Assembly: GCA_002419145.1 (NCBI GenBank)
Contig: DIFN01000035.1
Location: forward strand, 1 to 57,933
Length of the DNA: 57,933 bases
Origin: Mageeibacillus sp. UBA5747
GTDB taxonomy: Bacteria > Bacillota > Clostridia > Saccharofermentanales > UBA5734
Reading direction: 5' to 3'
A program made the position numbers and the translations under genes. Shown here piece by piece: positions 6,793 to 32,871 of the stretch (within the stretch, counting starts at the first letter, position 1; every line of letters starts with the position of its first letter). A model generated the notes under the pieces. It saw only the letters and a program-made list of their open reading frames with translations. It searched no databases and was not told where the DNA came from.

Positions 6793-6815
6793 GTGTTTAT
6801 ATCGAAATTTATGAA

Positions 6816-12431: not shown

Positions 12432-12480
12432 GGGCTTACCTCATTTCGCCAGTCCATCGTGTGCCCACGATTGCCACGGC

Positions 12481-12517
12481 CTTACTATATATATCGACAC
12501 TTTTTGCCATCACTTGA
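12481..12517 (-). promoter_or_regulatory. Sigma-28 promoter of the flhO-flhP-flgM-flgN-flgK-flgL-fliW-csrA block
   Basis: TCAA(12517-12514)-N15-GTCGATAT(12498-12491), immediately after the fliA stop. Confidence 0.75.
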
Positions 12518-16428: not shown

Positions 16429-17228
16429 GCCACACCCCCCAGCAGCTGAAGGGTCTGAGCCGACGCCGCAAAGAGCTGTTCGAACACCTGATCAGAAAAG
16501 GCGCCATACAAGGGTTGCATACCAAGCAGGACCACCATCCCCAACAGTGTTTTCATGGGGATGCCAATCATGTAGGCATGGATCTGGGGGACCGAGCGCA
16601 TCAGGATCCCGAGGAAAGCCTCGACCAGGAGCGAGGCCCCGATCATAGGCAGGCTCAGGCTGACAGCGAGGGAAAAGGAACTTGTGAACTGGGAGATAAC
16701 CAAGGGGGCTATGGCTGTCCAGGACAAAGCCGCGCCCACCGGAGCCAGCCGGAGTGATTGACTCAGGATGCGGATCAGGTGGAGATGGCCATTGTTGGCC
16801 AGAAAGTACAGCAAAAGGCCCATATTGAGAAAAACACCGCTCAGAGGCGCCTGGGTAGACGTCTGGGGATCGAGGACACTGCCGATGCCCAGCCCCAGCT
16901 CGACGTCTATGATCTGGCCAGCCACCTGAGTCAGGCTGACAAAGATCTGGCCGACAAAACCCAGGAGCAGGCCAATTCCAGTCTCCTGCAAGATCAGAAA
17001 AGCGTAGGTCACGACTGGGTAGTCGGCTGGTTCGACTGGCAGATCTTGTACGGGAACCAACAGCAGCGTCAGAAGCAAGCAGAAACCAACTTTAAACTGG
17101 ACAGGCAGGGTACGGCGGCCAAAGACCGGCGTTGCCAGGAAAAAGCCGCTCAGACGCAGAAAAATCAGAAAATAATGTGGCAGCAAGGCGGGGTCGGGCA
17201 GGGGTACCGTCCAAGTATTCATATTCAT
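16425..17228 (-). CDS. fliR: FliR
   Basis: FLRLSGFFLATPVFG, AGQIIDVELGLG, PQIHAYMIGIPMK. Confidence 0.95.
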   Translation of the reverse strand: MNMNTWTVPLPDPALLPHYFLIFLRLSGFFLATPVFGRRTLPVQFKVGFCLLLTLLLVPVQDLPVEPADYPVVTYAFLILQETGIGLLLGFVGQIFVSLTQVAGQIIDVELGLGIGSVLDPQTSTQAPLSGVFLNMGLLLYFLANNGHLHLIRILSQSLRLAPVGAALSWTAIAPLVISQFTSSFSLAVSLSLPMIGASLLVEAFLGILMRSVPQIHAYMIGIPMKTLLGMVVLLGMQPLYGAFSDQVFEQLFAASAQTLQLLGGVA

Positions 17229-17494
17229 TCCACCAGCGTTGCAATGCTCGCAAAGACCTGGAGCGTGAATTCAGTCAGGCGCGTCAGCATCCAGCTGCCA
17301 AAAAACAGCAGGGACAGCAGGATGCTGAGGATTTTCGGGATGAAGACCAAGGTTTGCTCATTGATCTGAGTCATGGCCTGGAAAATCGAGACAACCAGGC
17401 CAACCGCGAGGCCAATCAGCAGCACCGGTGCCGAAACTTCGATCACCACAGTGATGGCTTCTTTGAAAATTTGGAGGATGACGGCCTGGTCCAT
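17225..17494 (-). CDS. fliQ: FliQ
   Basis: GLAVGLVVSIFQAMTQINEQTLVFIPKI; start moved to MDQAV after ACAGGAG. Confidence 0.96.
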   Translation of the reverse strand: MDQAVILQIFKEAITVVIEVSAPVLLIGLAVGLVVSIFQAMTQINEQTLVFIPKILSILLSLLFFGSWMLTRLTEFTLQVFASIATLVE

Positions 17495-17564
17495 GATGGA
17501 TCTCCTGTCTGACTGATTTTGAAGTTGCTTTTGAGGTTGATTTTGGATCGGGCTGGCTTGGTTT

Positions 17565-18359
17565 TCAGTGGAAACTGTCAAACAAGGTTTTGATCACGAG
17601 GGTCCAGCCATCGACAAGAACGAAAAGCAGGATCTTGAAGGGCAGAGAGATGACCGTGGGTGGCAACATCATCATGCCCATCGACATCAGCGTGCTGGCG
17701 ACGATCATGTCGATCACCAGAAATGGAACAAAAATGAAAAAACCGATCTGAAAGGAGCGCTTGAGTTCACTGGTCACAAAGGCCGGAATCAGGACACGGG
17801 TGGGAATGTCTTCAAGGGTTGGGACCGATTCGATCTGGGCCAGATCCATGAACAATTCAAGATCTTTTGTGTACACCTGGCGCGTCATGAATGCACGCAA
17901 AGGCTTGATTGCCTCATCAATGGCCACCGACTGGGTGATTTCACCGGCCACATAAGGCTCATAGGCATTAGCTTGGATCTCGCTGATAAAAGGACCCATG
18001 AAAAAGAAGTTCAGGATCAGCGCCAGCCCGATCAGGATCTGGTTGGGTGGCATTTGCTGCAGACCCAGAGCATTTCTCACAAACGAGAGGACGATCAGGA
18101 TCCGGGTGAATCCAGTCGTCAGGATCAGGATCGAAGGCGCCAGGGCCAGAATGGTCAGGAGAACGAGCAGGTTGATGCCGTCGCCCTGGTCGGCCGGTAA
18201 CTGGATCGAAACCGCTGCAACGTTCTGTCCCCACAGGAGAGGGGCGAAAAGCCCCGTCGCCACCAGGCAGACTTTAGCCAGAACGTTTTTCCGGATCACA
18301 GGCTGTTCAGTTGTCTTTGTGGTCCGGCGGGCCAGAAGTCCTGCGTGTACAAGCGGCAT
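17565..18359 (-). CDS. fliP: FliP
   Basis: TGFTRILIVLSFVRNALGLQQMPPNQ, IPAFVTSELK, MGMMMLPPTVISLPFKILLFVLVDGW; start placed at MPLVH (uncertain). Confidence 0.96.
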   Translation of the reverse strand: MPLVHAGLLARRTTKTTEQPVIRKNVLAKVCLVATGLFAPLLWGQNVAAVSIQLPADQGDGINLLVLLTILALAPSILILTTGFTRILIVLSFVRNALGLQQMPPNQILIGLALILNFFFMGPFISEIQANAYEPYVAGEITQSVAIDEAIKPLRAFMTRQVYTKDLELFMDLAQIESVPTLEDIPTRVLIPAFVTSELKRSFQIGFFIFVPFLVIDMIVASTLMSMGMMMLPPTVISLPFKILLFVLVDGWTLVIKTLFDSFH

Positions 18360-18789
18360 GGATGAGATCCTTTCCTTGGGATATCCAGTGATTGATCTGT
18401 TGATACATGAGTGGGCGGGCACTGTTCGCTGCGCTGTCATGAGACGACTCCAGTGGTCCCTTTTCCCTGACCAGTGGGTCCAGCACCGTAGCGAATGCGG
18501 GCAGATCAACTGCCTCGCCCAGCGTGATGTGCTGGGGAGTCACACCAGCCAGATAAATTTTTTCGCCCACCTGGACCAGAAGCAACTGACGATCTCGGCC
18601 GAGACTGAGCCGCTCGATCACCTTGAGCTGGCTGGTGTGTCGGGTCAGATGCGGTCTTCGGGCCAGCAAGCGTGTCCCCCAGTAAGCCAGGGCAAAGACC
18701 AGTCCCATCAGAACCAGAGCGCCGATGTTTTGCAGCCAGCTGGGCGAGTTTTCTGGCGCAATCAGAGCGATCGTCACGCAACCATTCAT
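18307..18789 (-). CDS. fliO: FliO/FliZ
   Basis: One TM, then LKVIERLSLGRDRQLLLVQVGEKIYLAGVT; lies between fliY and fliP. Confidence 0.9.
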   Translation of the reverse strand: MNGCVTIALIAPENSPSWLQNIGALVLMGLVFALAYWGTRLLARRPHLTRHTSQLKVIERLSLGRDRQLLLVQVGEKIYLAGVTPQHITLGEAVDLPAFATVLDPLVREKGPLESSHDSAANSARPLMYQQINHWISQGKDLIHAACTRRTSGPPDHKDN

Positions 18790-19970
18790 ACGTTTGACCG
18801 CACTTTGCGGGCGCCGGAGAAAACCTCCGTGATCCGCACCCCATAGTTGTCATCGATCACGATGACCTCGCCTTTGGCCATGCTTTTGCCGTTCACGACC
18901 ACGTCAACCGGCTCGCCAGCCAAGCGGTCCAAGGCAACAATCGAGCCGATATTCAGCTCCAGGATTTCCTTGATTGGCCTTTTGCACTGCCCCAGTTCGA
19001 CGGTGATCTGCAATGGAACATCAAGGATCAGGTCCATGCCGCTTTCGGGCAGCTGGCTGGTAACTTGTTCCTGAGCATCGAAACTGACCAGTTCAATCGG
19101 CCTGGCCTCGATCGTCCGGACAGGTTCCGGAACCTGTTTGCCGGCCCGGCCAGGCATAGCAGGCGGGACGGAGCGGGCTACCGGGGCGGGTTCCTCTGCC
19201 GGCACCGGCAGAGGCGCAAGTGCCGGCCTGGCAGGGGTTGGCGCCGGCCTGGCAGAGGTTGGTGACGGCGTTGCCACCTGGATCGGACCCAAGACCCGCT
19301 CGACCAGCTGGCGGCCAAAATGCACCGGCATCAGCTGAATGATGTTGCTGCTCAAAAGACCTTCGATTTCCAGCTTGAACTGAGCCCGGATCAGTTCGGG
19401 CTGCATATTTTCGACCAGACCCGCCAAATGATCCTGAGTCAGTGTGACGATCTGGGTCCGCGGCGGCGAAATATTGACCGGATGGTTGAACATATCGGCC
19501 ATGGCTGTGGCCATGCCGCCCATCATCTGGTTCATCGCCTCACTGATGGCGCTCAAGTGCATGTCCGACAGCTCCTCATCGCGAACCACCCCGTTACCGC
19601 CCATCATGACATCGGTCATGATCTTGACGTCATCTATTTGAAGAATGAACAGGTTGTGGCCAACAAAGCCGCTGGCGTACTCCACATCGACCATGACATA
19701 GGGCACCTGATGCTGACTGGAAATATGCTCCATGGAAATGATCGCAACATCCGGGGTGGTGATGACAACTTTGCGGCCGAGGATGGCATGCAGGGCTGTG
19801 GCTGCGGCACCCATGCTGATGTTGCTGATCTCACCCAGTGCATCCATTTCAATCGCTGACAGGTCCGTCATGGCTTGGGATCTGCCAGTCTCCAGGCTGG
19901 ATTCGTGCTCACCGGCCAGCGCCTGCTGGAGCAATTCATCGATTTCGGTCTGGGACAATGTTTCAGACAT
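18786..19970 (-). CDS. fliY: Switch phosphatase FliY (CheC-like plus FliN domain)
   Basis: LSQTEIDELL CheY-binding peptide, two ExxN motifs (GEISN, SEAMN), C-terminal FliN domain ILDVPLQITVELG..GEPVDVVVNG..AKGEV. Confidence 0.95.
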   Translation of the reverse strand: MSETLSQTEIDELLQQALAGEHESSLETGRSQAMTDLSAIEMDALGEISNISMGAAATALHAILGRKVVITTPDVAIISMEHISSQHQVPYVMVDVEYASGFVGHNLFILQIDDVKIMTDVMMGGNGVVRDEELSDMHLSAISEAMNQMMGGMATAMADMFNHPVNISPPRTQIVTLTQDHLAGLVENMQPELIRAQFKLEIEGLLSSNIIQLMPVHFGRQLVERVLGPIQVATPSPTSARPAPTPARPALAPLPVPAEEPAPVARSVPPAMPGRAGKQVPEPVRTIEARPIELVSFDAQEQVTSQLPESGMDLILDVPLQITVELGQCKRPIKEILELNIGSIVALDRLAGEPVDVVVNGKSMAKGEVIVIDDNYGVRITEVFSGARKVRSNV

Positions 19971-20955
19971 GGGCAGCAGCCTCCTCATTGATTCCTGTGA
20001 TTTTGATGGCATAGCGGCGGTTTTTGGTGCCTAGTATGCCGGAAAGACGGGGAATATGACCGATGTTGAGCTGGATAGGGTCGCCGACCCGGTTATCGAG
20101 ATGGATCACGTCACCCACCTGGAGATTGACCAGGTCGCGGACTGTGAGCGTGGTTTCCGACAAAATACCCTTGATCGTGACCGGTGTCATGGCCAAAGAC
20201 TGGAGCAGGACATCCTGGCAGGAATTTTGAACAGGGACTTTGGCTCCCCGGGAGGCCAGAAGGCTGGTGTTCAAAGATTTGGCAACGGGTTCCAAGGCTA
20301 TCTGGGGCAGGCAGAAATTGAACAGGGATTCGACTTCACCAATCGTCAGTTTCAGCGTCAGGATCGCGATGGCTTCACTCGGTGGAGCGATCTGGGCATA
20401 TTGCAAGCTCGTTTCCAGAGCATCAAACCGGGTTTCGGTCTTGACAATTTTCTCCCAGGATTCATCGATCAGGGGCAGAATCTGGCGGATGATCCTTTCG
20501 AGGATGGCCAGATCGATTTCGGTATAAGGCCGCGCCTCGGGGCTTTGCACACATGTGCCTCCCAAGATGCTTTCGATGACCATGTTGGCCATTTCCGGAG
20601 AGATGCGCAGCAAGATCGGCCCTTGCAACGGTGGCATCCGGATCAGGACTAAAAGGCTCTGGGCTGCGATGGAGTTGGTGAATTCGTAGTGGGTCTGTTC
20701 TTCCACCGAGGCCAGGACGCAGTCACAAAACGTGCCGAGAATACCTGTCAGGCGCGTGGACAGTAAACGGGCATATGTTTCAAATACATGGCCCAGGGTA
20801 CGGATCTGGTCACGCGGGATCCGGTTGGCTGTGCGAAAGTCATAATTGCGGATTCGGCCCCGCTTCTCGGTTTTGCTTTCCAGGGTAGGTTCCTCACCGG
20901 AAGTCAAGGCCAAGAGCAGCTGGTCTATTTCGTTCTGGGACAAGATATCTGCCAT
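19963..20955 (-). CDS. fliM: Switch protein FliM
   Basis: MADILSQNEIDQLL, YDFR, LQVGDVI. Confidence 0.96.
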   Translation of the reverse strand: MADILSQNEIDQLLLALTSGEEPTLESKTEKRGRIRNYDFRTANRIPRDQIRTLGHVFETYARLLSTRLTGILGTFCDCVLASVEEQTHYEFTNSIAAQSLLVLIRMPPLQGPILLRISPEMANMVIESILGGTCVQSPEARPYTEIDLAILERIIRQILPLIDESWEKIVKTETRFDALETSLQYAQIAPPSEAIAILTLKLTIGEVESLFNFCLPQIALEPVAKSLNTSLLASRGAKVPVQNSCQDVLLQSLAMTPVTIKGILSETTLTVRDLVNLQVGDVIHLDNRVGDPIQLNIGHIPRLSGILGTKNRRYAIKITGINEEAAAHV

Positions 20956-20970
20956 GTGTCCTCTCCCGGC

Positions 20971-21363
20971 TTACTGGATTACAAAGGTGTTGAAGTAGAT
21001 TTTGAGGAAATCATCGGTGTCAAATTCAGAGTTGAGGCGCTCGAGAATCTCTTCATCGAGATGGCCCTCGATCCTTTCCTGTTTGAGATCTTCTTCTGTC
21101 TTGCTGCGCAAAATGGCATTGATGGCATTCCTGATCACATGATTGTTTTCAACATAAAAAGCTTCCTTTTCACTGTCAGCGAGTTTGAAAACAATATCTG
21201 TACAGAGCAGGCGCCGGCTGTCCGCAATGTCGGTGACAAATTGCTCCCCTGGATCCAGGGTAAAGCTCATGTCAATAGGTTCTTGCGGCATGAAAAAGAA
21301 ATAGTAGCCGGCTGCGCCGCCCAGAACCAAAAGGATGAGAATGATTGGGATGATTTTTTTCAT
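20971..21363 (-). CDS. fliL: FliL
   Basis: N-terminal TM, FVTDIAD, IRNAINAILRSKT, KIYFNTFVIQ. Confidence 0.93.
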   Translation of the reverse strand: MKKIIPIILILLVLGGAAGYYFFFMPQEPIDMSFTLDPGEQFVTDIADSRRLLCTDIVFKLADSEKEAFYVENNHVIRNAINAILRSKTEEDLKQERIEGHLDEEILERLNSEFDTDDFLKIYFNTFVIQ

Positions 21364-21384
21364 AGGGTGTCTAAGTGATTCCTT

Positions 21385-22281
21385 TCAGCTCACGATGATG
21401 ACATCGACCCGGTTGTTCAGGTCCTGTCCCTGGGTCGTCTCATCACTGGCGACCGGTCGTGCGCTGCCATAACCAATCGTGCAGGCAAGGTCCTGGGCCA
21501 GTCCGCTGCTGGCCATGATCCGTTGCAGGACTTTCGCCGAGCGGCGTGCAGCCAGTTCCCATTTGCTTTCGATATCTCCCTCCGGCGGTGTAACGCCATC
21601 GGTGTGGCCTTCTGTGCGCAGCGATTTGACTTGCGGAGTGTAATTGCGGATGATCTGTGCCGCCCCATCGAGTACCGCTGCCGCATCTGGTTTGAGCTGG
21701 TCACTGCCGGATTCAAAGATGACCGATGCAACCAAACGGATCAGCAGCTGTGAGTTCTTGGTTTCGACAGACAGGCTTCCCCCGATTGCAGATCCCTGTA
21801 TGTAAGCCTTCAAGTCATCCTGTAACTGGCGGACCTTTGGGTCTTCAGTCGGTTTGGGTTTAGCTGTGGTCGCCTGGGTCGTTTCCTTGGTGGTTTCCTC
21901 AGTGGTTTCCTGGACCGTTGGGCTGGCTGCAGAAGCTTTCACAGATTCAGACGGTTCGGTGACTGTTGGTGTCAGGTTTTCTGTGATGATATCGGCTTCA
22001 TCTTCAGGGTCGCGCAATGTCTCAGCCGGGAAACCACGTGGAATGGTATTGGCCAGCGGGTTAACGCTCTGGATTTTACCGTTGCTGGTGGCAGCGACCG
22101 GCTGGGGCGAACCGGAAAAGGAGCTGACAAAGGCTTGCCATTTGGCTGCATCCAGGGATGAGAAGGAATACAAGAGGACGAAAAAGGTCAGCAACAAGGT
22201 GACCAGGTCGCCATAGGTGTCCATCCAGTTGGCCCCACCCGGAACATCATCATTCGGTCGCCGTCTGCCCATCGATTCCAT
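21385..22281 (-). CDS. motB: Stator subunit MotB/MotS
   Basis: WMDTYGDLVTLLLTFFVLL TM with the conserved Asp; OmpA-like domain EGHTD..WELAARRS..NNRVDVII. Confidence 0.95.
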   Translation of the reverse strand: MESMGRRRPNDDVPGGANWMDTYGDLVTLLLTFFVLLYSFSSLDAAKWQAFVSSFSGSPQPVAATSNGKIQSVNPLANTIPRGFPAETLRDPEDEADIITENLTPTVTEPSESVKASAASPTVQETTEETTKETTQATTAKPKPTEDPKVRQLQDDLKAYIQGSAIGGSLSVETKNSQLLIRLVASVIFESGSDQLKPDAAAVLDGAAQIIRNYTPQVKSLRTEGHTDGVTPPEGDIESKWELAARRSAKVLQRIMASSGLAQDLACTIGYGSARPVASDETTQGQDLNNRVDVIIVS

Positions 22282-23068
22282 CCATGCTTTCTTCTAAAGT
22301 TGATTCGCTGCTGACCTTACTTGTCCGCAAATCTTCCGGGACATACGAGATCAGTTTTTCCCGAATGATCCGCGGATTGCTGCCCTGCTGGATCATCAGG
22401 ATCCCCTGGAGCAGCATCTCGCAGCGGGCCAGGCGCAAGGCATTGGCGGCGCGCAGTTTAGTGGCCATCGGTGTGAAAATCAGGTTGGCCAGGATGACGC
22501 CGTAAAAGGTCGTGATCAGGGCGGTGGCCATAGCAGGGCCCAATGCGGCACTGTCCGACAGAAACATCAGCATGTTGATCAGGCCGATCAGCGTGCCGAC
22601 CATACCAAACGCGGGTGCCAGGCCTGCCATGCTCAGGAGAATTTTAACCGGGACCTGGTCATGCTCCTCAGTAAGGGCTATCTCCCCTTCGAGGATTTCG
22701 CGGACCAGTTCCGAATCCGTGCCATCAACGATCAGTTCAATCCCCTTTTTCAGGAAAGGATCCTGAAATTCCATCCCGTCCAAGGCCAGCATCCCTTCCC
22801 GGCGGGCTTTATTGGCCAGATCCAGCACGTTGTCAAGATCGCCCATGAGGTCAATTTCACTGCCCTGGAAGACTTCACGCAGACTTTTGAGCAGCTGCCT
22901 GAAATTTGCGGTCGGATAAGATGCCAGAGCAGCAGCAAACACACCGCCAAAGACAATCAGCACGCTGGGCAAATCAACATACCGCTTGAGGTCACCACCC
23001 AGCAAGATGCTGAACACGATCAGGACGAAACCGATCAGGATGCCTGGCAAAGTTGTGGTCTTCATCAC
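22250..23068 (-). CDS. motA: Stator subunit MotA/MotP
   Basis: ARREGMLALD, FLKKGIELIVDG, APAFGMVGTLIGLI, ALITTFYG, NPRIIREKL. Confidence 0.96.
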   Translation of the reverse strand: MMKTTTLPGILIGFVLIVFSILLGGDLKRYVDLPSVLIVFGGVFAAALASYPTANFRQLLKSLREVFQGSEIDLMGDLDNVLDLANKARREGMLALDGMEFQDPFLKKGIELIVDGTDSELVREILEGEIALTEEHDQVPVKILLSMAGLAPAFGMVGTLIGLINMLMFLSDSAALGPAMATALITTFYGVILANLIFTPMATKLRAANALRLARCEMLLQGILMIQQGSNPRIIREKLISYVPEDLRTSKVSSESTLEESMDGIDGQTATE

Positions 23069-23295
23069 ACAACCTCACAGCCTGTTTCGTGGGGGGCCTG
23101 TCCAGCCCAGGCCAGACCGGAGCACCGGTTACGGTACTCGATGATTTTTTCGAGAATGCAGTTCGAGCTTTCCTCGACCAGGATCCGCTTGCCATTGGTC
23201 ATGGTGATGATCGTGTCAGGCCGTTCTTCGATCAGCTCGATCAGGTCACAATTGAGAATAAAAGGTGTGTTATTGAGACGGGTCAGCTGGATCAT
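23065..23295 (-). CDS. flbD: FlbD/SwrD family protein
   Basis: MIQLTRLN..FILNCDLIELIEERPDTIITMTNGKRILVEES. Confidence 0.93.
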   Translation of the reverse strand: MIQLTRLNNTPFILNCDLIELIEERPDTIITMTNGKRILVEESSNCILEKIIEYRNRCSGLAWAGQAPHETGCEVV

Positions 23296-23317
23296 GGTTC
23301 ACCTGCCAGTTTAAGAT

Positions 23318-24124
23318 TTAGCGTTTGAGGTTGACCAGCTCTTCAAGCAGCTGGTCGGAAGTCGTGATCACGCGCGAGTTGGCCTGGAAGCCGCGCTGGG
23401 TGATGATCATGTCGGTAAATTCCTTGGCCAGGTCGACATTGGACATCTCAAGTGAAGATGGATTGAGGAAAGGTGCCCCATTGGCACCGGGGAGGTTGAC
23501 AACGGCCGGGCCAGAGTTCTGGCTTGCGCTGTACAAGCTCTCCCCCAGTTTTTCCAGGCCGCCCTGGTTGTTGAAATTGGCCACTGCAATCGTGGCAATC
23601 GTTTCCTTGGCCTCGGTTGTGGAATTGATGCCGATCACGTCACCATTTCGTGTCACGGCAATGTTGTAGTAATTTTGCCCAATCGTGATGTTGCCAAGGG
23701 CTCCTGGTGGGATCTGTCCTTGCACCATAAGCCCGCCTGAGGTGACCAGATTGCTGTTGCTGTCGAGGAAGAAATTGCCAGCACGCGTGTACAGCTCACG
23801 GTTGCCATCTTTAACCACGAAAAAGCCGTCGCCATCGATGCTCAGGTCCAGCGGAGCGCCGGTGTATTCGATCGCCGCCCGAGTCTGCATGACATCGATC
23901 GATCCGAGTGCGACACCGAGACCGACTTGCTGGGGATTGGTACCGCCAAAATCTGTTGTCGGGGCTGATGCCGGAGCCAGCGTCTGGCTGTAGATATCCT
24001 GGAAAGTGACGCGGCTGCTCTTAAAGCCGATCGTGTTGACATTGGCGATGTTATTGCCGACAACGTCCATTTTGGTCTGATGGTTTTTCAGGCCGGATAC
24101 ACCGGCGTACAGGGATCGCAGCAT
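23318..24124 (-). CDS. flgE: Hook protein FlgE (short, Bacillus type)
   Basis: MLRSLYAGVSGLKNHQTKMDVVGNNIANVNT, LEMSNVDLAKEFTDMIITQRGFQANSR; follows flgD. Confidence 0.93.
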   Translation of the reverse strand: MLRSLYAGVSGLKNHQTKMDVVGNNIANVNTIGFKSSRVTFQDIYSQTLAPASAPTTDFGGTNPQQVGLGVALGSIDVMQTRAAIEYTGAPLDLSIDGDGFFVVKDGNRELYTRAGNFFLDSNSNLVTSGGLMVQGQIPPGALGNITIGQNYYNIAVTRNGDVIGINSTTEAKETIATIAVANFNNQGGLEKLGESLYSASQNSGPAVVNLPGANGAPFLNPSSLEMSNVDLAKEFTDMIITQRGFQANSRVITTSDQLLEELVNLKR

Positions 24125-24172
24125 GGTTGTTTACCTCCGTTTGTCTAATGGTTTCCTTCAGATATTTCTTGG

Positions 24173-24658
24173 TTACACATACACGGTTTCGGTGTCGCTG
24201 GCTGTGTCTGCTGGCTTTTGGTCTGAGATCAGGGCCACAGGCACATCCGGCAGGAAGACACTCAGCCCGGTGTTAAAGGGCAACTGTCTCCCATCGACCT
24301 CGAGGTAGGCTTCACCGTTTTTCAGGAAAGCCCGCGTCACCTGGCCGACAACGGTTTCGGCATTGCCACTGTCATTCGTCAAAGTGGTTGCAATCGATTG
24401 GCCGACGAGTCCGAATGCCTGGGCGGACTGGAAGGATTGATTCAGACTCTGCATCTGTTCCAAGGAACTGAACTGGGCCATCTGGCTGATGAATTCTTTG
24501 TCCTCGAGCGGCTGCATGGGATCCTGGTTCTTGAGCTGAGCCACCAGGATCTTGAGGAAAGCGTCCTGGTCCAGTGTCTGCGTCGTGGCCCGAGTCAGCG
24601 TGCTGACAGTAGCCGTACTGCTGGTATTCTGCAGGGATGAAATTGCTTCGATAGCCAT
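24173..24658 (-). CDS. flgD: Hook cap FlgD
   Basis: LDQDAFLKILVAQLKNQDPMQP..EFISQMAQFSSLEQM. Confidence 0.96.
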   Translation of the reverse strand: MAIEAISSLQNTSSTATVSTLTRATTQTLDQDAFLKILVAQLKNQDPMQPLEDKEFISQMAQFSSLEQMQSLNQSFQSAQAFGLVGQSIATTLTNDSGNAETVVGQVTRAFLKNGEAYLEVDGRQLPFNTGLSVFLPDVPVALISDQKPADTASDTETVYV

Positions 24659-24669
24659 GGTTGATCCTT

Positions 24670-25812
24670 TCAAGTCCATCGGTCGATGTAGCTGGAGACG
24701 GGATGCCGGAGCGGCGGACGGATTTCTCTGCCTCCGGTGTCCTGCTGGCTGGGGATTGATTGGCTCCCCTGTCCCTGATCATGCTTGTTGGGGGGCTCTT
24801 GTGGTGATGATTGTCCCTGATGCTGCTGAAAGGGATGATCCTGAGTGAAAGCGCTTTGCTCATAGACCACTGCGATGCTGGCGCAGGCGATTCCTTTGTC
24901 CGCCAGGGCTGACTGCAAAGTCTGAACTTGGCTGCCCAGCAATTGGGTCGTCTCAGGGTTGTCGGCAACAATCCGGGCGCTCAGTCCTTGTTCTGACTGC
25001 TCAAACAAGATCTCCAGCTGACCCATCGTGTCGGGCCGCAACCGGACAGTCAGCCGTTGGCCGTCCGGCTGCTTCTCAAGCACAATCGCAGCCACCAGAT
25101 GTTCCCAGTCCAGCCCTGGTTTCGAAAGACTCTGACTGGCCGTGCTTTCTGACTGGCTTTGCTCCGGGACTGCCATTTCCAGGGCTGGCTGGTCTGATGT
25201 CCAGACTGGCCCTGGTTCAAACTGCTCATCTGCCGTTTTCTCTATTCTTCCCCGATGCGACAAGCTGCCCGCTTCGGCGTCTGATTGCTCAGAATTTTCT
25301 GGTTGCTCAGAATTTGAGGTGTCCGCTCCAGATGTGATGACGGATACCTGGTGAGGCTCAATTGCCGTGGCAGAGGGCTCCCCTGCCAGCACAGGGTCTG
25401 CCATGGGTTCCGGTTTGACAGCCAGGGCAGCAGGATCGGAAAGATTCTCAACGGATGCGAGTTGCATCAGCTGTTGATTCTGAAGGGACGGTCCATTGTT
25501 GCTGGTCGGGGGATCGGCCGGTGGGGCAATCGCTCCTAATTGTCCCTGGCTCGTGCCGGGCATCTCCTGTCCCCGTACAACAGGCCGGGCCAGCACGGTC
25601 CAGATCTGGGCAGCCATGCTTGTTTCAAGTTCAGCTGGATCAGCCTGGATCAGGGGCGGTTCCTGACCTGGAAGTCCAGTGAGTGCCTGGATGAGAGCGA
25701 CAGCAAAAGAGCAATCCTCCGGCTGGATCTTCTTGATGTCCTCTGGTGCGGGTCCGTGGCCTGGACCTGAGACTTTGACCGGCAGTGCTTGCATGGCGAT
25801 GGGTGCGCTCAT
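24670..25812 (-). CDS. fliK: Hook-length control protein FliK
   Basis: Low-complexity N-terminus; C-terminal LTVRLRPDTMGQLEI..LSARIVADNPET..LQSAL; lies between fliJ and flgD. Confidence 0.88.
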   Translation of the reverse strand: MSAPIAMQALPVKVSGPGHGPAPEDIKKIQPEDCSFAVALIQALTGLPGQEPPLIQADPAELETSMAAQIWTVLARPVVRGQEMPGTSQGQLGAIAPPADPPTSNNGPSLQNQQLMQLASVENLSDPAALAVKPEPMADPVLAGEPSATAIEPHQVSVITSGADTSNSEQPENSEQSDAEAGSLSHRGRIEKTADEQFEPGPVWTSDQPALEMAVPEQSQSESTASQSLSKPGLDWEHLVAAIVLEKQPDGQRLTVRLRPDTMGQLEILFEQSEQGLSARIVADNPETTQLLGSQVQTLQSALADKGIACASIAVVYEQSAFTQDHPFQQHQGQSSPQEPPNKHDQGQGSQSIPSQQDTGGREIRPPLRHPVSSYIDRWT

Positions 25813-26270
25813 GCGCGACTGCCCATCTGGACGGCGCGGTGGGAAGTGCTGGAGACAAATTCGTCCATCACCTTGTCCTGCTCCCGGGCATCTTCGGCCA
25901 GATAGGCTTCGTGTTGCTGATCGCGCAAGGTTTTCAACGATTTAACCTCCGTGAAAATCTCACGCAGCTGTTCCTGACACAGGTTTCTGGCCTGCCAAGC
26001 TTGTTCGGTGGCCTTGTGCTGCAGTTCGATCTGCTCGCGCAAGGCATTGATGTGATGGACTTCCTGGAGAAGCGATTGGGAGCGAAATCCATTTTGCACC
26101 AGCTCGTACCAGCTGTTGAGGGCGTGATCCTTCTCCTTGTTCAACGCATCTTGCCGCTGCTGTTCCTGGGCTAACCGCTCTTCCGCATGGGCCAGGTTTT
26201 TCTTGGCTTCCTGTTCCAGCAGGCGTTTGGCAGCAAGGACGGATTCGAGGGGAAAAACAAATTTTTTCAT
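25809..26270 (-). CDS. fliJ: FliJ
   Basis: [12 protein letters not shown], coiled coil, EQDKVMDE. Confidence 0.92.
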
Positions 26271-27589
26271 GACTGGCCTCCCATGATCTGGATCATTTTC
26301 CTGACGGTGTCAGATAGGGGAACAGATTCCTGAATGTCTTGTTGCAGCAGCTGGTTGATCTGAGGCCGCAGCAACAAGGCGGCATCGATTTCCGGATTGG
26401 AACCCTTTTTGTATGCTCCAATGTTGATCATGTCTGCAGCTTCCTTGTACACACTCATTTGGGTTCGGATGAATCCGGCGGCTTGGCGATGGCTCTCCGG
26501 GACAATGGCGTTCATGCTCCGGCTGATGCTCGCCAGAATGTCGATGGCCGGAAAATGATTGCGATGAGCCAGGGATCGCGACAGGACAATATGGCCGTCG
26601 AGTATGCCGCGCACGGTGTCGGCAACAGGTTCATTCATGTCATCACCTTCGACCAGGACTGTGTAAAGCGCGGTGATTGTCCCCTTTTCGGCACTGCCAC
26701 TGCGTTCTAAAAGGCGTGGCAGCACATTGAACACGGACGGTGTATAGCCTCTGGAAACGGGCGGTTCGCCAACAGACATACCGATCTCCCGCTGGGCCAT
26801 GGCAAAGCGGGTCAGGGAGTCCATCAGCAACAGCACTTGGTTGCCCTGGTCGCGAAAATACTCCGCAATTGCTGTGCCGAGGAGGGCTGATTTCTGGCGC
26901 ACGATGGCCGGCTGATCCGAGGTGGCCACCACGAGGACTGATTTCGCCAGGCCTTCTGCTTTCAAGTCATTTTCGATAAATTCCCGAACTTCGCGACCTC
27001 GCTCACCAATCAGGGTGATGACATTGATGTCAGCCTGGGCATTTCTGGCAATCATGCCGAGCAGCGTGCTTTTGCCAACACCGCTGCCGGCAAAAATCCC
27101 CATGCGCTGACCCTGGCCGCAGGTCAGAAGACCGTCGATGGCCGAGATCCCCAGGGAAAGTGGTTGCTCGATCCGCTGCCTGGCCAGAGGATTGGGCGGT
27201 GGGTTGTCTGACTGATAATGGGTTTCCGGTATGATCGGTCCGAGATCGTCCATGGGTTCACCCAAGCCATTGAGTATGCGGCCTCGCAAGGCTTCACCGA
27301 CTGGAACCTGGAGGGATGTGCCCAGCCCGACCACCTTGCTGCCCGATCCAATTCCGGACACCGGACCAAAAGGCATGAGCAGGTTGTGGTGGCCCTTGAA
27401 TCCGACCACCTCGGCGATCACCGGCTGACCGTCGGTCTGGGGATAGATCCGGCACAGGTCACCTATTTTGGCCAGCGGACCAATCGATTCGATGGTCAGG
27501 CCAATCACCTGGCAGACCGTACCTGTATACTCAAAGGTATCCATGTGCTGGAAAACCGGCAAATATCTGTCTGCTGCAAAAGGGATCAT
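26267..27589 (-). CDS. fliI: Export ATPase FliI
   Basis: Walker [26 protein letters not shown], Walker [23 protein letters not shown]. Confidence 0.98.
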
Positions 27590-28314
27590 CGGCTCACCGC
27601 CGTCATCAGCTGCCTGATTTTATCCAGCTGCACCGAAGTGCTGGCATCGATCATCCCGGATTCACTTGCCACAATCAGGCTGCCCGGCTCAAGGGACGGA
27701 TCCGCCTTGAATGAGAGAACTTGCCCATTATTCTGGAAGTTATAACCAAATTCAGCTGTCAAATACGCCAGATCCGTCTCATGGACCCGACAGTCAATTT
27801 TGATGCTGGCTTTTAATTTGGATAAGGCCTGGCGGGTCAGGGCTACAAAAGCTTGATCGTTTCTTTTGAGTTCCAGATTGAGAATTTTCTCTGCAATCGA
27901 AACACTCAGCTCGACCAGTTGTGGTTCGATCTGGTCCAGCTGTTCCTGAGTGCTGGCCTGGATGTCGGACAAAGCCGCCTGGAAGACCTCCTGCAGATTT
28001 TGGGCTTTAAGCTCGTAATCAGCCTTGGCTTCCTGAATTCCAGTAGCGAATCCACGGGCGAACGCGTCCTGCTCAATGCTTTCTGCCTGCTGGCGTGCCT
28101 CTTGGAGTATTGCTTCGGCTTGCAGACTGGCCTGTTCGATCAGCCGTTCGGCAGCGCTCCGCCGCTCGGCCTGATGCTGCTCATCAGAAAGCGCCCGCGC
28201 AAGCGCGCCGGTCTGGTGCAGCCAGGGTCCTGCGGTTTCCAAATCCACCGCGGGCCGGATCACCGGCCGGACGTCACCATAAGTGACGCTGTGAGATTTA
28301 TGGATCTTAGTCAA
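27586..28314 (-). CDS. fliH: FliH
   Basis: [13 protein letters not shown] (AxxxG repeats), [21 protein letters not shown]; likely TTG start at 28314 after AGGAGG. Confidence 0.9.
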
Positions 28315-29323
28315 TGAGCTCCTCCTTACCGCGAGCCATAATGATTTCACCGGCTTCATCGAGCCGGCGGATGGCCATCACGATTTTCTGTTGCGCTTCT
28401 TCAACGTCACGGAGTTTGACCGGGCCTTTGATCGACATCTCGTCTTTGATCATTTCCTGCAAGCGTTTCGACATGTTTTCAAAAATGTATTCAGACACTT
28501 GTGGTTTAACCCCTTTGAGGGCCAGGACCAGTTCATCGTTGTTGACCTCCTTGAGCACACGCTGGATTGAAAGCTTGTCCAGCTTGACAATGTCTTCAAA
28601 GAGGAACATCTTGCTCCTGATTTCTTCCACCAACGCTTCATCACGGGATTCCAAACTCTCCAGGATGAATTTTTCCGTGCTGCGGTCAATGGAATTGAGG
28701 ATGTTGACCGTAGTCTCGATGCCCCCGACATGGGTCAGGTCGTTGAAACCGAGCGAGGTTAGTTTCTTTTCCAGGATTTTCTCGATCTCCCGGATATGTT
28801 CGGGTGACGTTTTACCCATGTGGGCAATTTTGCTGACCACTTCAGTCTGGATGGCATGCGGCAGAGCACTCAGGATTTCCGCAGACTGGTGCGCTGCCAG
28901 ATACGAGAGGATCAGGGCAATGGTCTGAGTCTGTTCGTTCTTGATGATGTTGAGGATCTGGGTCGAATCGAGGCGGCGGGCAAAATCAAATGGGCGTACT
29001 TGCAGGGATGTCGAGAGTTTGCCGATCAATTCACAGGCCTTCTGCTGGCCGACGGCATGATTCAAAATGTCACGGGCATATTCGATCCCGCCCTCCAGGA
29101 TGTAGTTCTGGGCCAGGCAGGCTTCGCCAAATTCGCGCAGGACTTCGCTTTTAGTCTGGTTGTCGATGCGCCGGACATTGGCGATTTCAACCGTCAATTG
29201 TTCGATTTCTTCTTCAGACATTTGCTGCAGGACTTTGGACGAATAGTCGCGGCCCATAGATATCAGCAAAATCGCAGCTTTTTCCCGAGCTGTCCGAGTC
29301 CTGTTTTCTGCCATGCCACTCAT
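28307..29323 (-). CDS. fliG: Rotor protein FliG
   Basis: KAAILLISMG, EGGIEYARDIL, EQTQTIALILSYL, MFLFEDI, GPVKLRDVEEAQ. Confidence 0.98.
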   Translation of the reverse strand: MSGMAENRTRTAREKAAILLISMGRDYSSKVLQQMSEEEIEQLTVEIANVRRIDNQTKSEVLREFGEACLAQNYILEGGIEYARDILNHAVGQQKACELIGKLSTSLQVRPFDFARRLDSTQILNIIKNEQTQTIALILSYLAAHQSAEILSALPHAIQTEVVSKIAHMGKTSPEHIREIEKILEKKLTSLGFNDLTHVGGIETTVNILNSIDRSTEKFILESLESRDEALVEEIRSKMFLFEDIVKLDKLSIQRVLKEVNNDELVLALKGVKPQVSEYIFENMSKRLQEMIKDEMSIKGPVKLRDVEEAQQKIVMAIRRLDEAGEIIMARGKEELID

Positions 29324-31002
29324 CGGGATTCCTCAGCCATCCAGCCACGGATGATATTGGCTGCCAGTTCCGGATTCTCCCGGACATAACGTTCTGCAAC
29401 TGCTTTGTCATCGGTCAGATGCATGGTGTGATCTGGTTCCAGGCTGACCGAAAAATGGGAGTCGACCTGTTTTTCTGTCCGCTGGTTCGGATTGAGTGAC
29501 GGGAACATCTCATACACTTCATCAGTCTTATCCAGTTTGACCCGCTTGGCATTGGACCCCATCTTCTTTTCCTTGTGCCCTGCAGCGGTCTGGCTTTTTG
29601 CTCTGGCCGGCTTTTCTTTGCGGAAAATGCTGGCAATCAGACCCAGGATAACCAGCGCGACCAGCAAGGCTGCGCCCATCATCACAAAAAACTGGGTTTG
29701 CTGCCATTTTTGGGCCTGCTGCTCAATCAGGTTGTACGATGTCCAGCTGTCGGTCATGGAGCTCTGGCCATTGAAGGGCAGCGCCGTAACCTGGATCGAG
29801 GTCGCCGGCACACCAACAGCACTGGCAATCATGTTCGCCACATCCTGTGAATAATCGATGCCCTGGATGGCGTTCTGGTCCAGAACAACCGACACACTCA
29901 AGTCTGCAAGGGTGCCCTTGGCCTTGACCAGGCTTTCCTTGATCGAAGACACTTCATAGCTGATTCGTTCGGAATTTTTCTCATAGGCGGTGCTATCAGC
30001 TGCTGCAACAGGATACACTGGGGCTGCTGCTCCATTGGCATCCGCACCGGCTGCCTGGTTAGCTGCATCGGCCTGGCTGGCACTGTCCAGGATCTTCTCA
30101 ATCGACTTGATCACACCGGTATTGTCTGCTGAAGCAGGTTCAAACGTCATGCTTTCCACAACTTGTTCATCAAAATTGAGTCGGACACTGACCTCAGCCA
30201 GGACTTGTTCCATTCCAAAAACGGGCTGCAACAAGGCCAGGACCTGCTTTTTCAGGCGTTCTTCCACCTGCTGTTCCAGTCCAATCTGATCTGCAGTCAG
30301 CATCTGTCCCTCGTCTTGATCCACGGAAAGGACATTCATGTTACTGTCGATGATCGTGATTCCCTCGGGCAACATGCCTGGAACACTTTTCTCAATCAAG
30401 GACGCAATGGCCTGGACGTTGGTGGCATCGAGCACAGTCCCTGGGCGCAAGGTCAAAAGCACCGCGGCCGTGGCCGGATCAGCCTGATTTTCAATGAGAA
30501 AGCTGCTTTTTTCCGGAATGTTTAGGGAAACCCGGGCTTTGACCACACTGTCAAAGGTTTCGATCGCGTTTTCCAAATCTTTCTGCAGCTGATAGCGGCG
30601 ATAGATCTGCTTGTCAGACTCTGTCATGCCAAAGCCTGTGCCTTGCTGGAGGATATCGAGGGTTTCGCCATCCTGGGGGAAGCCCTCCGCGGCCAGATCC
30701 ATGCGCAGGGCATCGACCTGGTCCTTGGGTACAAGAATGGTATCTGTTCCTTTAGGCTTGGCTTCGATTTTGCGTTCTTCCAGCTGTTGTAAAATGACCC
30801 CGGCTTCCGATGCAGTCAAGCCTGAATAGAGCACAGCATATTGGGTCTGGTTCAAGATCCAAACCATGATCCCAGACACCAGCAGCAGCAAAACCACCAG
30901 GAGCACCAGCAGCTTGCGGCGTGCAGCCGACAAATTCCGCCAGAACTCGCTGATTGGCTTGAACAGACCCGATATGAATTTTGGCACAGTTGTTGTACTC
31001 AT
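29320..31002 (-). CDS. fliF: MS-ring protein FliF
   Basis: Two TMs, YAVLYSGL, GFGMTESDKQIYRRYQLQKDLENAI, ARVSLNIPEKS. Confidence 0.96.
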   Translation of the reverse strand: MSTTTVPKFISGLFKPISEFWRNLSAARRKLLVLLVVLLLLVSGIMVWILNQTQYAVLYSGLTASEAGVILQQLEERKIEAKPKGTDTILVPKDQVDALRMDLAAEGFPQDGETLDILQQGTGFGMTESDKQIYRRYQLQKDLENAIETFDSVVKARVSLNIPEKSSFLIENQADPATAAVLLTLRPGTVLDATNVQAIASLIEKSVPGMLPEGITIIDSNMNVLSVDQDEGQMLTADQIGLEQQVEERLKKQVLALLQPVFGMEQVLAEVSVRLNFDEQVVESMTFEPASADNTGVIKSIEKILDSASQADAANQAAGADANGAAAPVYPVAAADSTAYEKNSERISYEVSSIKESLVKAKGTLADLSVSVVLDQNAIQGIDYSQDVANMIASAVGVPATSIQVTALPFNGQSSMTDSWTSYNLIEQQAQKWQQTQFFVMMGAALLVALVILGLIASIFRKEKPARAKSQTAAGHKEKKMGSNAKRVKLDKTDEVYEMFPSLNPNQRTEKQVDSHFSVSLEPDHTMHLTDDKAVAERYVRENPELAANIIRGWMAEESR

Positions 31003-31017
31003 TCGTCTGGCAGATCC

Positions 31018-31314
31018 TTACAGTTGCATACGCATGATTTCGTTGTAGGCATCCAAGGCTTTGTTGCGGATCTGCACGGTCATTTGCAGAGCAAGATCAG
31101 CTTTTTCCGCCGCCAAGACCACTTGGTGGACCGAAGTAGCCTGACCCGTCAACAGGCCGATGCTCTCTGCCTGAGCGGCAGCCTGAGCTTCCCGGGCTGG
31201 CTGCAGTGCCTGGCCTAGCCAGCTGGAAAAATCACTGGCAGGATCCTGAACACGCTCGATGGATGGCGCTGCGGCAGACTGGAGTGCGGAAACTGACGAA
31301 AGTGCTTGTACCAT
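31018..31314 (-). CDS. fliE: FliE
   Basis: VHQVVLAAEKADLALQMTVQIRNKALDAYNEIMRMQL. Confidence 0.96.
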   Translation of the reverse strand: MVQALSSVSALQSAAAPSIERVQDPASDFSSWLGQALQPAREAQAAAQAESIGLLTGQATSVHQVVLAAEKADLALQMTVQIRNKALDAYNEIMRMQL

Positions 31315-31323
31315 GACTATCTC

Positions 31324-31764
31324 TTACCTTCCCATATCCAATGCTTTGAGGGCCATGCGTTTGGACGCATTCATAACGGTGATATTCGCTTCATAGGCTC
31401 TGGTCGCAGCGATCATGTCGACATATTCCCGGGCTATATCCACATTGGGCAACTGGACATAGCCGTTTTCGCCGGCGTCCGGATGAGACGGGTCGAACAC
31501 CATCTGAAAGGGTGTCTGGTCTGCCTCTGTGGCCGAAACAACAACCCCGCTGGCTGTTGACTGGCCGCTGTGCTCCAGTTGGCTCAGTCGTTCCGCAAAG
31601 CTGGGTTCCTGCTGTGCCAGGACCACGGATTTTCTCTGGTACGGTCCGCCTTCAGCGGTCCGTGTTGTCTCGGCATTGGCGACATTCTGGGCGATGACAT
31701 CCATGCGCAGGCTTTGGGCGGTCAGTCCGGAAGCGCTGATCTCCAGGGTTTTGAACAGGTTCAT
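31324..31764 (-). CDS. flgC: Rod protein FlgC
   Basis: ISASGLTAQSLRMDVIAQNVANAET..GGPYQRK, FDPSHPDA, ATRAYEAN. Confidence 0.97.
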   Translation of the reverse strand: MNLFKTLEISASGLTAQSLRMDVIAQNVANAETTRTAEGGPYQRKSVVLAQQEPSFAERLSQLEHSGQSTASGVVVSATEADQTPFQMVFDPSHPDAGENGYVQLPNVDIAREYVDMIAATRAYEANITVMNASKRMALKALDMGR

Positions 31765-31767
31765 GGC

Positions 31768-32187
31768 TTATTTCCCCTCATTGAGGATCATTTTGATCCG
31801 GCCTAGTTCCTTGGAAACGGCATATGTCAGGGTATCGTAAAGGATCGAATTCTCGGCCAGATCGGTCATTTCCCGGTCAAGATCCACCGTATTGCCATCG
31901 AGTTTTTGGGAGATTGCCTGGTTTTCGGATATCTTTGCTTTCAGGTCATCCAGATCGAGTGTGCGGCTCAAGGCAGAGCCAAAAGAGCTGTCCGTCCTGT
32001 CAGCTGCAAAAAGACCCCCTGTCTGCAGCACCTGGCTGAAAACAGATTCAAAATCAACCGTCTTGCTTTTGTATCCGGGGGTATCGGCATTGGCAATGTT
32101 GGCAGCCAGGACCTCGTTTTTAGTCCAGACAGCATCAAGTCCCTTTTCCAGAATCGAGGTGTTCAGCGTCAGTCGTTCCAGCATCAT
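31768..32187 (-). CDS. flgB: Rod protein FlgB
   Basis: EVLAANIANADTPGYKSKTVDF, DGNTVDLDREM; start moved to MMLERL after GTGAGG. Confidence 0.96.
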   Translation of the reverse strand: MMLERLTLNTSILEKGLDAVWTKNEVLAANIANADTPGYKSKTVDFESVFSQVLQTGGLFAADRTDSSFGSALSRTLDLDDLKAKISENQAISQKLDGNTVDLDREMTDLAENSILYDTLTYAVSKELGRIKMILNEGK

Positions 32188-32368
32188 TTTCCTCACATCT
32201 CTGGATCCAGCAACTTTCCAAGGAGCTGAATCCTGTTCAAAAAATGACGTCCCTGTCGGCACATTCGCATCCATGCGATGGTTTCACGCGCGCAAAAATT
32301 GACAGCTCTTTCGAGCATTCTTTCATTTTTTATTCAATTGTCCGATCAGCTGATTTGCAGTGGCTGGG

Positions 32369-32397
32369 AAAAGAAAAAGGCTCCTTGCGGCGCCCTC
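32369..32397 (-). terminator. Intrinsic terminator (riboswitch expression platform)
   Basis: GAGGGCGCC-GCAA-GGAGCCUUU stem (one mismatch, GNRA loop) followed by UUCUUUU, about 35 nt 3' of the aptamer. Confidence 0.8.
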
Positions 32398-32433
32398 CGT
32401 ACACTGAACAATGCAGAAATAGATCTCTGCATG

Positions 32434-32518
32434 AACCGGTAACTGGCTGCCATGGAATTGCTTCTTTAGGCCCTAAGCTTTGCGTAACAGGTTTTCACCT
32501 GCTCTGCCTTGATCGGTT
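32434..32518 (-). ncRNA. c-di-GMP-I (GEMM) riboswitch aptamer
   Basis: AACCGAUCAA-GGCAGA-GCAGGU-GAAA-ACCUGU-U-ACGCAAAGCUUAGGGCCUAA...CAUGGCAGCCAGUUAC-CGGUU. P1 AACCG/CGGUU, GAAA tetraloop and CCUAA..AUGG receptor are present, as are the G20 (32508), A47 (32481) and C92 (32439) equivalents in Vc2 numbering. Confidence 0.95.
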
Positions 32519-32544
32519 TGTAATTATTGATAGCATTTACGGTA

Positions 32545-32573
32545 ATTATATGGAGGTTCTGTTAAGCTGTCAA
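32545..32573 (-). promoter_or_regulatory. Sigma-A promoter of the flgB operon
   Basis: Perfect TTGACA(32573-32568)-N17-TATAAT(32550-32545), about 25 nt 5' of the aptamer. Confidence 0.92.
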
Positions 32574-32602
32574 TCGGATCCAGATTAAAAATCACACTCT
32601 TT

Positions 32603-32650
32603 TTGTCATTTTTGTAAACATCCTTGATCCATATTGCGCAAAAATGACAA
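32603..32650. repeat. 12-bp perfect inverted repeat with a 24-bp spacer (candidate operator)
   Basis: TTGTCATTTTTG (32603-32614) and CAAAAATGACAA (32639-32650). Confidence 0.6.
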
Positions 32651-32871
32651 GGCAGTTTATAAAACCGTTGCCCGGACAACATGAATAAAGAAATCTCGTT
32701 TTAGTTTTTATATATGATCTATTTTGACAAAGCATCTGTGGCCTCGGTCCAATTGCACAAATGTTCAAAATGAAAGTTTAATAATGAGATTATTCATTTT
32801 AAGCCAACCTGCGTTTCCCGACCCATATGCCAAAATATGATGTCTGATCAAGCTCCGCTTGCAAGATGAAT

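Follow-up and report, generated by a model that had tools for sequence, protein, structure and literature searches.

A probable c-di-GMP OFF riboswitch in the leader of an early flagellar operon (flgB-fliA) of an oil-field Clostridia genome

Introduction

The flgB operon of Clostridioides difficile, which also encodes the flagellar sigma factor SigD, is controlled by Cd1 (Cdi-1-3), a class I riboswitch for cyclic di-GMP (c-di-GMP). Termination of this operon is raised by c-di-GMP, and Cd1 has been shown experimentally to be an OFF switch (PMC9262584; PMC6366702). The aptamer and the terminator of Cd1 coexist and compete with a transient antiterminator (PMC9262584; PMC6366702). According to a review, the class I riboswitches of Vibrio do not control transcription termination (PMC6366702). 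Further, the pilM-type riboswitches of Geobacter (GEMM-Ib), which respond to 3',3'-cyclic GMP-AMP (3',3'-cGAMP), act as ON switches, with a terminator and an aptamer that are mutually exclusive (PMC9262584). Here we describe the leader of flgB in a 57.9-kb stretch of DNA from Mageeibacillus sp. UBA5747 (contig DIFN01000035.1), which was analysed as a whole and is called the window below. All elements of this leader lie on the minus strand, and all positions are those of the window.

The flgB leader of the window is a further example of the established Cd1-type control of flgB operons by a c-di-GMP-I riboswitch. We consider it likely that this class I riboswitch acts at the level of transcription, as an OFF switch, in the leader of the early flagellar operon flgB-fliA. 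The element shares with Cd1 the Rfam family, the position in the leader of an early flagellar operon and an operon that includes the gene for a flagellar sigma factor. The predicted design is also the same, with a terminator apart from the aptamer, an antiterminator made from the 3' part of the aptamer and, as judged here by folding, OFF logic. In contrast to Cd1, the leader is about 350 nt long and contains a family-specific module of twin GGA hairpins and a predicted helix that pairs with the Shine-Dalgarno (SD) sequence; further, the host is an environmental metagenome-assembled genome (MAG) of oil-field Clostridia. The structural reference of the class, Vc2 of Vibrio cholerae, has the same spacing from helix P1 to A47, the same tetraloop/receptor build and the C92 to which an equivalent is found here, whereas the second arm is 3 nt shorter in our aptamer and the junction J1/2 reads GGCAGA. 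The pilM-type riboswitches have the aptamer fold and a transcriptional expression platform in common with the flgB element. They carry A at position 20, whereas the flgB element has G at this position and a terminator that is independent of the aptamer.

Annotation of the riboswitch adds an element that is invisible to annotation based on open reading frames (ORFs). It predicts that, in a Clostridia lineage of oil reservoirs, c-di-GMP shuts motility at one point, acting on about 20 kb of early genes and, via FliA, on the late genes. The occurrence of the arrangement throughout the family and the Clostridia supports the generality of the Cd1 paradigm and leaves the paradigm unchanged. The sole part of the leader that might be new is the twin GGA module.

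A class I c-di-GMP aptamer upstream of flgB

The first-pass annotation of this DNA, which was made by eye, had described a complete GEMM aptamer between a promoter and a terminator. A search of the window with cmscan (Rfam 15) bore this out far above threshold. RF01051 (c-di-GMP-I, GEMM-I) matched 32518-32435 on the minus strand with 65.8 bits (gathering score, 35; E, 1e-10) and over the full model (positions 1-87 of 87), and this was the single above-threshold Rfam match in the whole window. A permissive Rfam scan of 32150-32700 returned noise only, apart from RF01051.

When 32518 was set as position 10 in Vc2-style numbering, the landmarks fell at the Vc2-like spacing that had been proposed, with G20 at 32508, the GAAA of positions 32-35 at 32496-32493, C44 at 32484 and A47 at 32481. 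The aptamer (32434-32518) is closed by a P1 helix of 5 bp, as noted previously (AACCG 32518-32514 / CGGUU 32438-32434), and has two arms. Arm 1 carries the GAAA tetraloop and arm 2 carries the receptor CCUAAA/CAUGG, which aligned to the CUAA/AuG columns of the model. The equivalents of the ligand-contacting nucleotides G20, A47 and C92 of Vc2 are all intact (G32508, A32481 and C32439), including the C92 equivalent that had been pointed out before. Judged from its sequence, the class I c-di-GMP riboswitch of the leader is genuine. As the genome encodes 13-14 GGDEF domains, c-di-GMP is made by the organism. The earlier proposal that c-di-GMP controls the flgB-fliA unit is thus supported by the RF01051 match and the gene content, and we infer that the aptamer binds this ligand.

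The earlier annotation had also drawn attention to J1/2, which reads GGCAGA instead of the usual GGCAAA. The reading was correct and the emphasis was not, because this position is A, G or U among the flgB riboswitches of the family, and GGCAGA is therefore ordinary variation. We also considered whether GGCAGA mimics the 5' arm (AUGCAGAGA) of the hairpin that follows the aptamer, which would let the 3' arm of that hairpin invade the aptamer. This idea was rejected because genome G005 alters the hairpin (GGG/CCC) without a change in J1/2, and genomes G004 and G001 alter J1/2 (GGCAUA) without a change in the hairpin.

Terminator and predicted switching logic

Two hairpins lie between the aptamer and the U-tract. 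The first is a spacer hairpin, AUGCAGAGA-UCUA-UUUCUGCAU (32411-32432), whose 7-bp core agrees with the first-pass annotation and which extends to 9 bp with outer A-U and U-A pairs. It formed at every co-transcriptional folding step, and in G005 a compensatory change of AGA/UCU to GGG/CCC preserves the stem. The second is the hairpin of an intrinsic terminator (GGAGGGC-G-CC / GCAA loop / GG-A-GCCUUUU) at 32398-32375, followed by the U-tract UUUUUCUUUU to 32369. This hairpin is GNRA-capped, contains a conserved 1x1 G.A mismatch in its stem and has a local fold of -11.4 kcal/mol (ViennaRNA). The flgB gene starts with ATG at 32187, behind the SD sequence GAGGA (32194-32190), and lies 182 nt past the U-tract, which agrees with the distance of about 180 nt estimated previously. 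The terminator is located 40 nt beyond the aptamer. The two can coexist because they share no nucleotides.

The nascent transcript was folded at increasing lengths, and an enforced aptamer was used as a proxy for bound ligand. Up to 32398, the structure of minimum free energy (MFE) consisted of the Rfam aptamer fold and the spacer hairpin. When the transcript ended at 32386-32380, the MFE structure was an alternative antiterminator fold, in which the 3' strand of the aptamer, UUCC-A-UGGC-A-GCC (32445-32457), pairs with 32394-32381 of the terminator. The pairing involves UUCC 32457-54, UGGC 32452-49 and GCC 32447-45 with GGC, GCCG and GGAG in the terminator region. At ends from 32377 on, including the full length, the MFE structure consisted of the aptamer, the spacer hairpin and the terminator. 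Occupancies were computed at transcript end 32379, a point at which the U-tract would not yet have left the hybrid. In free RNA, the occupancy was 0.33 for the terminator and 0.52 for the antiterminator; when the aptamer was enforced, the values were 0.77 and 0. Enforcement of the aptamer favours the terminator, and therefore the ligand should promote termination, as in an OFF switch. Thus, by folding, the terminator can form alongside the folded aptamer, and an antiterminator made from the aptamer 3' strand competes with it, which is the arrangement of Cd1. The first-pass annotation had left the choice between ON and OFF undecided; the anatomy of the leader and the folding series now indicate OFF.

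The same relationship was detected in other genera. The same aptamer strand is complementary to the 5' arm of the terminator in genomes G063, G022 and G012 (p ~0.01 compared with shuffles), as illustrated by GGCAACCG with CGGUUGCC in G063 and by UGGCUGC with GCAGCCA in G022.

On this model, the sigma-A promoter would start the transcript and the aptamer would emerge first. At a high level of c-di-GMP, the ligand would lock P1 and both helices of the aptamer, the freed GGAGGGCGCC would pair with GGAGCCUUUU, and the hairpin and the U-tract would release RNA polymerase after about 165-170 nt of transcript. At a low level of c-di-GMP, the 3' strand of the aptamer (UUCC-UGGC-GCC) would pair with the 5' arm of the terminator and act as an antiterminator, and the polymerase would continue through flgB to fliA.

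Several observations weigh against the OFF switch. The stem of the terminator is short, and a simple consensus scan made no terminator call at 32398-32369 because of the 1x1 G.A mismatch. In the own genus, the complementarity of aptamer and terminator (GGC-GCC, in which an A is bulged) was no better than in shuffles (p 0.33). Support for the predicted antiterminator rests on the folding series and the other genera, not on the statistics of the own genus. Further, the antiterminator and terminator folds differ by less than 1 kcal/mol, and once the U-tract may pair, the terminator is predicted to be dominant even without ligand; therefore, switching would have to be kinetic. A search of RNA runs with the leader, flgB and flgC as the query returned no runs, and a fliC query found one wastewater metatranscriptome, in which nothing was found on this stretch. 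Class I c-di-GMP riboswitches may also be ON switches elsewhere, as in the case of Bc2 (PMC6366702).

The weak and mismatched terminator would also fit a different mode of action, in which c-di-GMP is bound and control is exerted via Rho, RNA stability or the SD-sequestering helix, so that the U-tailed hairpin is incidental or a pause site. About 180 nt of conserved structured leader lie beyond the terminator, including the predicted anti-SD helix and the GGA hairpins, and in C. difficile Rho is reported to act in the flgB leader too (PMC7446863). We nevertheless regard this mode of action as unlikely. A hairpin and a U-run are found at the same position, 48-76 nt past the aptamer, in five genera with unrelated sequences, and the U-tract here has 9 U in 10 nt. 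Further, the terminator is near-invariant in sequence within the genus, where changes keep the pairing of the stem, such as one G.U to A-U change.

It is very unlikely that the same aptamer forms an ON switch, in which c-di-GMP prevents termination and raises flagellar expression. Class I riboswitches are known to work in both directions, with Bc2 and Vibrio as examples (PMC6366702), and the competing folds of our leader are close in energy. However, an ON switch needs a terminator that consumes part of the aptamer, whereas the terminator found here is a hairpin of its own, 40 nt downstream, which forms together with the folded aptamer, and enforcing the aptamer increased its occupancy. In addition, motility is generally repressed when c-di-GMP is high, and Cd1, the orthologue at flgB, is an OFF switch (PMC9262584; PMC6366702).

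Beyond the terminator of the proposed OFF switch, the leader holds another hairpin, weak and terminator-like, at 32294-32316 (GCUC-GAAA-GAGC, then UGUCAAUUUUU). It folds with -9.2 kcal/mol here; in G005 and G004 its stem is longer, with -10 to -13 kcal/mol.

Conservation of the riboswitch-flgB arrangement

The orthologous leader is present in three genomes of the same genus, with 77-86% identity, and in these leaders the promoter hexamers, the aptamer, the hairpin and the terminator are almost invariant. Across the family, flgB was found in 17 of the 54 genomes, and in 15 of these 17 (the own genome counted) flgB is preceded by an RF01051 aptamer on its own strand. P1 is 3-5 bp long in the family orthologues and covaries, as indicated by ACCG/CGGU, UCCG/CGGA and UUCG/UGAA (A-U to U-A and C-G to U-A). 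When 20 unrelated flgB loci were examined, flgB was preceded in 8 by a c-di-GMP-I aptamer or by the GGC variant of it, namely in loci of Sedimentibacter, Tissierellia, uncultured Clostridia and Bacillota MAGs; no such aptamer preceded flgB in Bacillus or in non-Bacillota among the 20. The riboswitch-flgB arrangement is ancestral in the family and widespread in Clostridia. In two distant Bacillota MAGs (L022 and L041), the flgB leader has the c-di-GMP-I-GGC variant RF03167 (70.7 bits) in place of the standard class I aptamer.

The family data also bear on the identity of the ligand. GEMM-I aptamers for cGAMP are almost inseparable from those for c-di-GMP by sequence models, and position 20 is a selectivity factor and no hard filter (PMC9262584), which leaves some room for another cyclic dinucleotide such as 3',3'-cGAMP as the ligand of the flgB element. 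Such a ligand is highly improbable, as both G20 and C92 were present in all 15 family orthologues, the genome encodes many GGDEF proteins, the motility-gene context is typical of c-di-GMP, and cGAMP riboswitches are known from Geobacter-type bacteria (PMC9262584). It is scarcely credible that the aptamer is a non-functional relic, as some C. difficile c-di-GMP riboswitches are (PMC6366702) and as the leader remnants kept without flgB by the relatives G001 and G069 might suggest, since here every contact nucleotide is preserved, the flagellar regulon to which the element is linked is intact, and the aptamer, the hairpin and the terminator are near-invariant in the genus while the flanking leader has indels.

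In G001, a 100%-complete assembly of the same genus, flgB was nowhere found. This genome keeps the promoter, the riboswitch, the terminator and part of the leader (L007, 1501-1785 and downstream), which now continue into a methyl-accepting chemotaxis protein gene at its middle (from TM2-HAMP on), and the leader looks like a remnant after loss of the flagellar locus. In G069, the twin GGA module described below survives behind a TTGACA-type promoter (L072, about 1500-1530, minus strand) with no same-strand gene after it, and is a relic.

Promoter, operon and genomic setting

The first-pass annotation had reported a perfect TTGACA-N17-TATAAT promoter upstream of the aptamer. A promoter scan gave the same result, with 12 of 12 bases matching in a sigma-A-type promoter at 32545-32573 (-35 TTGACA, 32573-32568; 17-nt spacer; -10 TATAAT, 32550-32545). 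This was the sole site with no more than one mismatch across the window, where 0.04 sites would be expected from shuffles. Transcription would start near 32538. TTGACA, about 17 nt and a -10-like hexamer are also present in orthologous leaders of other genera. The ATG at 32274, whose longer ORF is an artefact of a frame that stays open across the leader, was rejected as the start of flgB because it sits within a conserved RNA hairpin and because in another genus this frame does not stay open.

The -35 hexamer is closely preceded by a perfect 12-nt inverted repeat, TTGTCATTTTTG / CAAAAATGACAA, at 32603-32614 and 32639-32650, whose arms are separated by 24 nt. Within the genus the proximal arm, AAAATGACAAAAA, is conserved, and G008, G021 and G022 have AATGACAAA-like motifs ahead of their flgB promoters. 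The repeat may be an operator for a transcription factor. Further upstream, metagenome contigs from two independent runs (X1 and X2) have a 21-nt insertion, TGGCCTCGGTCCAATTGCATT, after 32738, which is an intergenic near-tandem duplication of the neighbouring sequence. A C. difficile-type invertible flagellar switch was also considered. The leader contains no suitable flanking inverted repeats, and no strand-changing joints were detected in four metagenome runs, in which contigs may miss rare variants; this type of switch was rejected on both grounds.

Downstream of the leader, the flgB-fliA unit that had been estimated at about 20 kb extends over 19.7 kb (12519-32187, minus strand, by Pfam assignments of the ORFs), on the same strand and with no significant gaps. 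The gene order is flgB, flgC, fliE, fliF, fliG, fliH, fliI, fliJ, fliK, flgD, flgE and flbD, followed by motA, motB, fliL, fliM, fliY, an unassigned ORF, fliP, fliQ, fliR, flhB, flhA and fliA. The sole gap left by the Pfam assignments is occupied by the flbD-like ORF (23065-23295). Terminator-like sites within the unit were at the level of chance (19 found; 20.1 expected). The last gene, fliA (13331-12519), encodes a sigma-70-family protein by Pfam, and its start overlaps the stop of flhA.

Sigma-28-type promoters, CTYAAG-N14-(G/T)(T/C)CGATAT, are found on the minus strand directly after fliA (12480-12510; CTCAAG-N14-GTCGATAT) and before fliC (6756-6795; CTTAAG-N14-TGCGATAT). Both precede a common ATAGTAAG. 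Beyond these promoters lie flgF/G, flgM, flgN, flgK, flgL, fliW, csrA, fliC, fliD, fliS, cheY and cheA. Because the unit ends with fliA, the gene for sigma-28, the late genes (flgM, flgK, flgL, fliW, csrA, fliC and others) would follow the riboswitch indirectly, via FliA.

Upstream of the leader and on the same strand are the genes of an Ech-type hydrogenase and hypA, hypB, hypF, hypD and hypE, which end at 32872.

Twin GGA hairpins and a predicted anti-SD helix

The segment between the terminator and flgB contains two small hairpins with GGA in their loops (32246-32278). Hairpin 1 is UCGCA-UGGA-UGCGA (32278-32265) and hairpin 2 is GACA-GGGA-CGUC (32257-32246), and the GGA motifs are 20 nt apart. 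The pattern GCANGGAWGC-N6-14-GAYANGGANGTC occurred exactly once per genome in 11 of the 54 family genomes; it was found in none of the 247 other genomes of the order, and reversed-pattern controls gave no occurrence. In the 10 pattern-bearing genomes that have flgB, the module is located 78-100 nt before the start codon. Rfam holds no family for the part of the leader from the terminator to flgB. The module was also considered as a sigma-28 promoter and rejected, as its CCGACA differs from the CGATAT -10 of the two sigma-28-like promoters of the window and no CTYAAG -35 is present.

ACA, GGA and GU are invariant or nearly so in the CsrA consensus RUACARGGAUGU obtained by SELEX, and the 19-21-nt spacing of the GGA motifs of the module suits a CsrA dimer bridging two sites (PMC7652899). 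Hairpin 2 has the ACA, GGA and GU of this consensus, and hairpin 1 deviates in having GCA for ACA. The leader thus has GGA in hairpin loops, an ACA..GGA..GU core and two sites whose distance of 20 nt lies within the 10-63 nt of CsrA site pairs, and both csrA and fliW are encoded in the window. These features make the twin GGA hairpins a candidate docking module for CsrA. As in the CsrA sites of the Bacillus subtilis hag and Escherichia coli flhDC leaders, GGA lies in the loops of short hairpins with an ACA-GGA-GU core, the sites are about 20 nt apart, and the flagellar cluster itself encodes csrA and fliW. In contrast to those sites, the candidate module belongs to the leader of an early operon, that of flgB, and is located 55-90 nt upstream of the SD sequence, after a riboswitch terminator. 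To our knowledge, CsrA control in Bacillota has been established for flagellin only, and no account of CsrA sites in the flgB leaders of Bacillota turned up in our literature search.

The 3' flank of the module could connect it to translation of flgB. In MFE folds, GUCAUUUUUU (32248-32239), which follows hairpin 2, pairs with AGGAAAAUGAU (32193-32183) in a predicted long-range helix (32183-32248). This helix would sequester the SD sequence and the start codon of flgB, and it encloses an inner hairpin at 32233-32203. Analogous anti-SD pairing made of other sequences is predicted in four further genomes of two further genera, for example CAUCUUG/CAAGAUG in G063 and GUCAU(C)/(G)AUGAC in G022 and G068. 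The anti-SD duplex had p values of 0.01-0.09 in 7 of 10 leaders, and the pairing was unsupported in G056, G053 and G023. We place moderate confidence in this predicted helix.

It is conceivable, if rather doubtful on the present evidence, that the flgB leader is a two-layer integrator, in which the c-di-GMP OFF riboswitch sets transcription and CsrA, itself set by FliW and flagellin export, subsequently acts on the twin GGA hairpins. Because the flank of the module pairs with the SD sequence and the start codon of flgB, binding of CsrA could open or close the SD-sequestering helix. The state of filament assembly would then feed back on the expression of basal-body genes. If the twin GGA module does bind CsrA, the FliW-CsrA circuit would be extended to the early flagellar genes.

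Further GGA motifs were noticed in or beside the loops of riboswitch terminators, namely GCAAGGAGCC (32381-32388) in the own terminator, AAGGAU in G010, AGGA in G023 and AGGAUAC in G021 and G008. These motifs may be due to chance, or may be a further contact of CsrA. The fliC leader (6650-6720, minus strand) has a GCGC-ACGGAC-GCGC hairpin and the SD sequence AAGGAGGA, which we take to be the two-site layout of CsrA repression of B. subtilis hag.

Host genome and its other c-di-GMP-I aptamers

The genome is a 96%-complete assembly of 2.3 Mb. Its nearest named relatives are MAGs of uncultured Eubacteriales and 'Mageeibacillus sp.', and DNA of this genome has been recovered in hydrocarbon and oil-field metagenomes. 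Three RF01051 aptamers are present in the genome, including that of flgB. The second (contig C82, 8872-8956, plus strand) precedes a gene for a secreted protein whose C-terminus is CAP/SCP-like by eye. The third (contig C80, 2566-2661, minus strand) precedes a gene for a small DsrE-like protein, which is followed by that for a C_GCAxxG_C_C-like protein.

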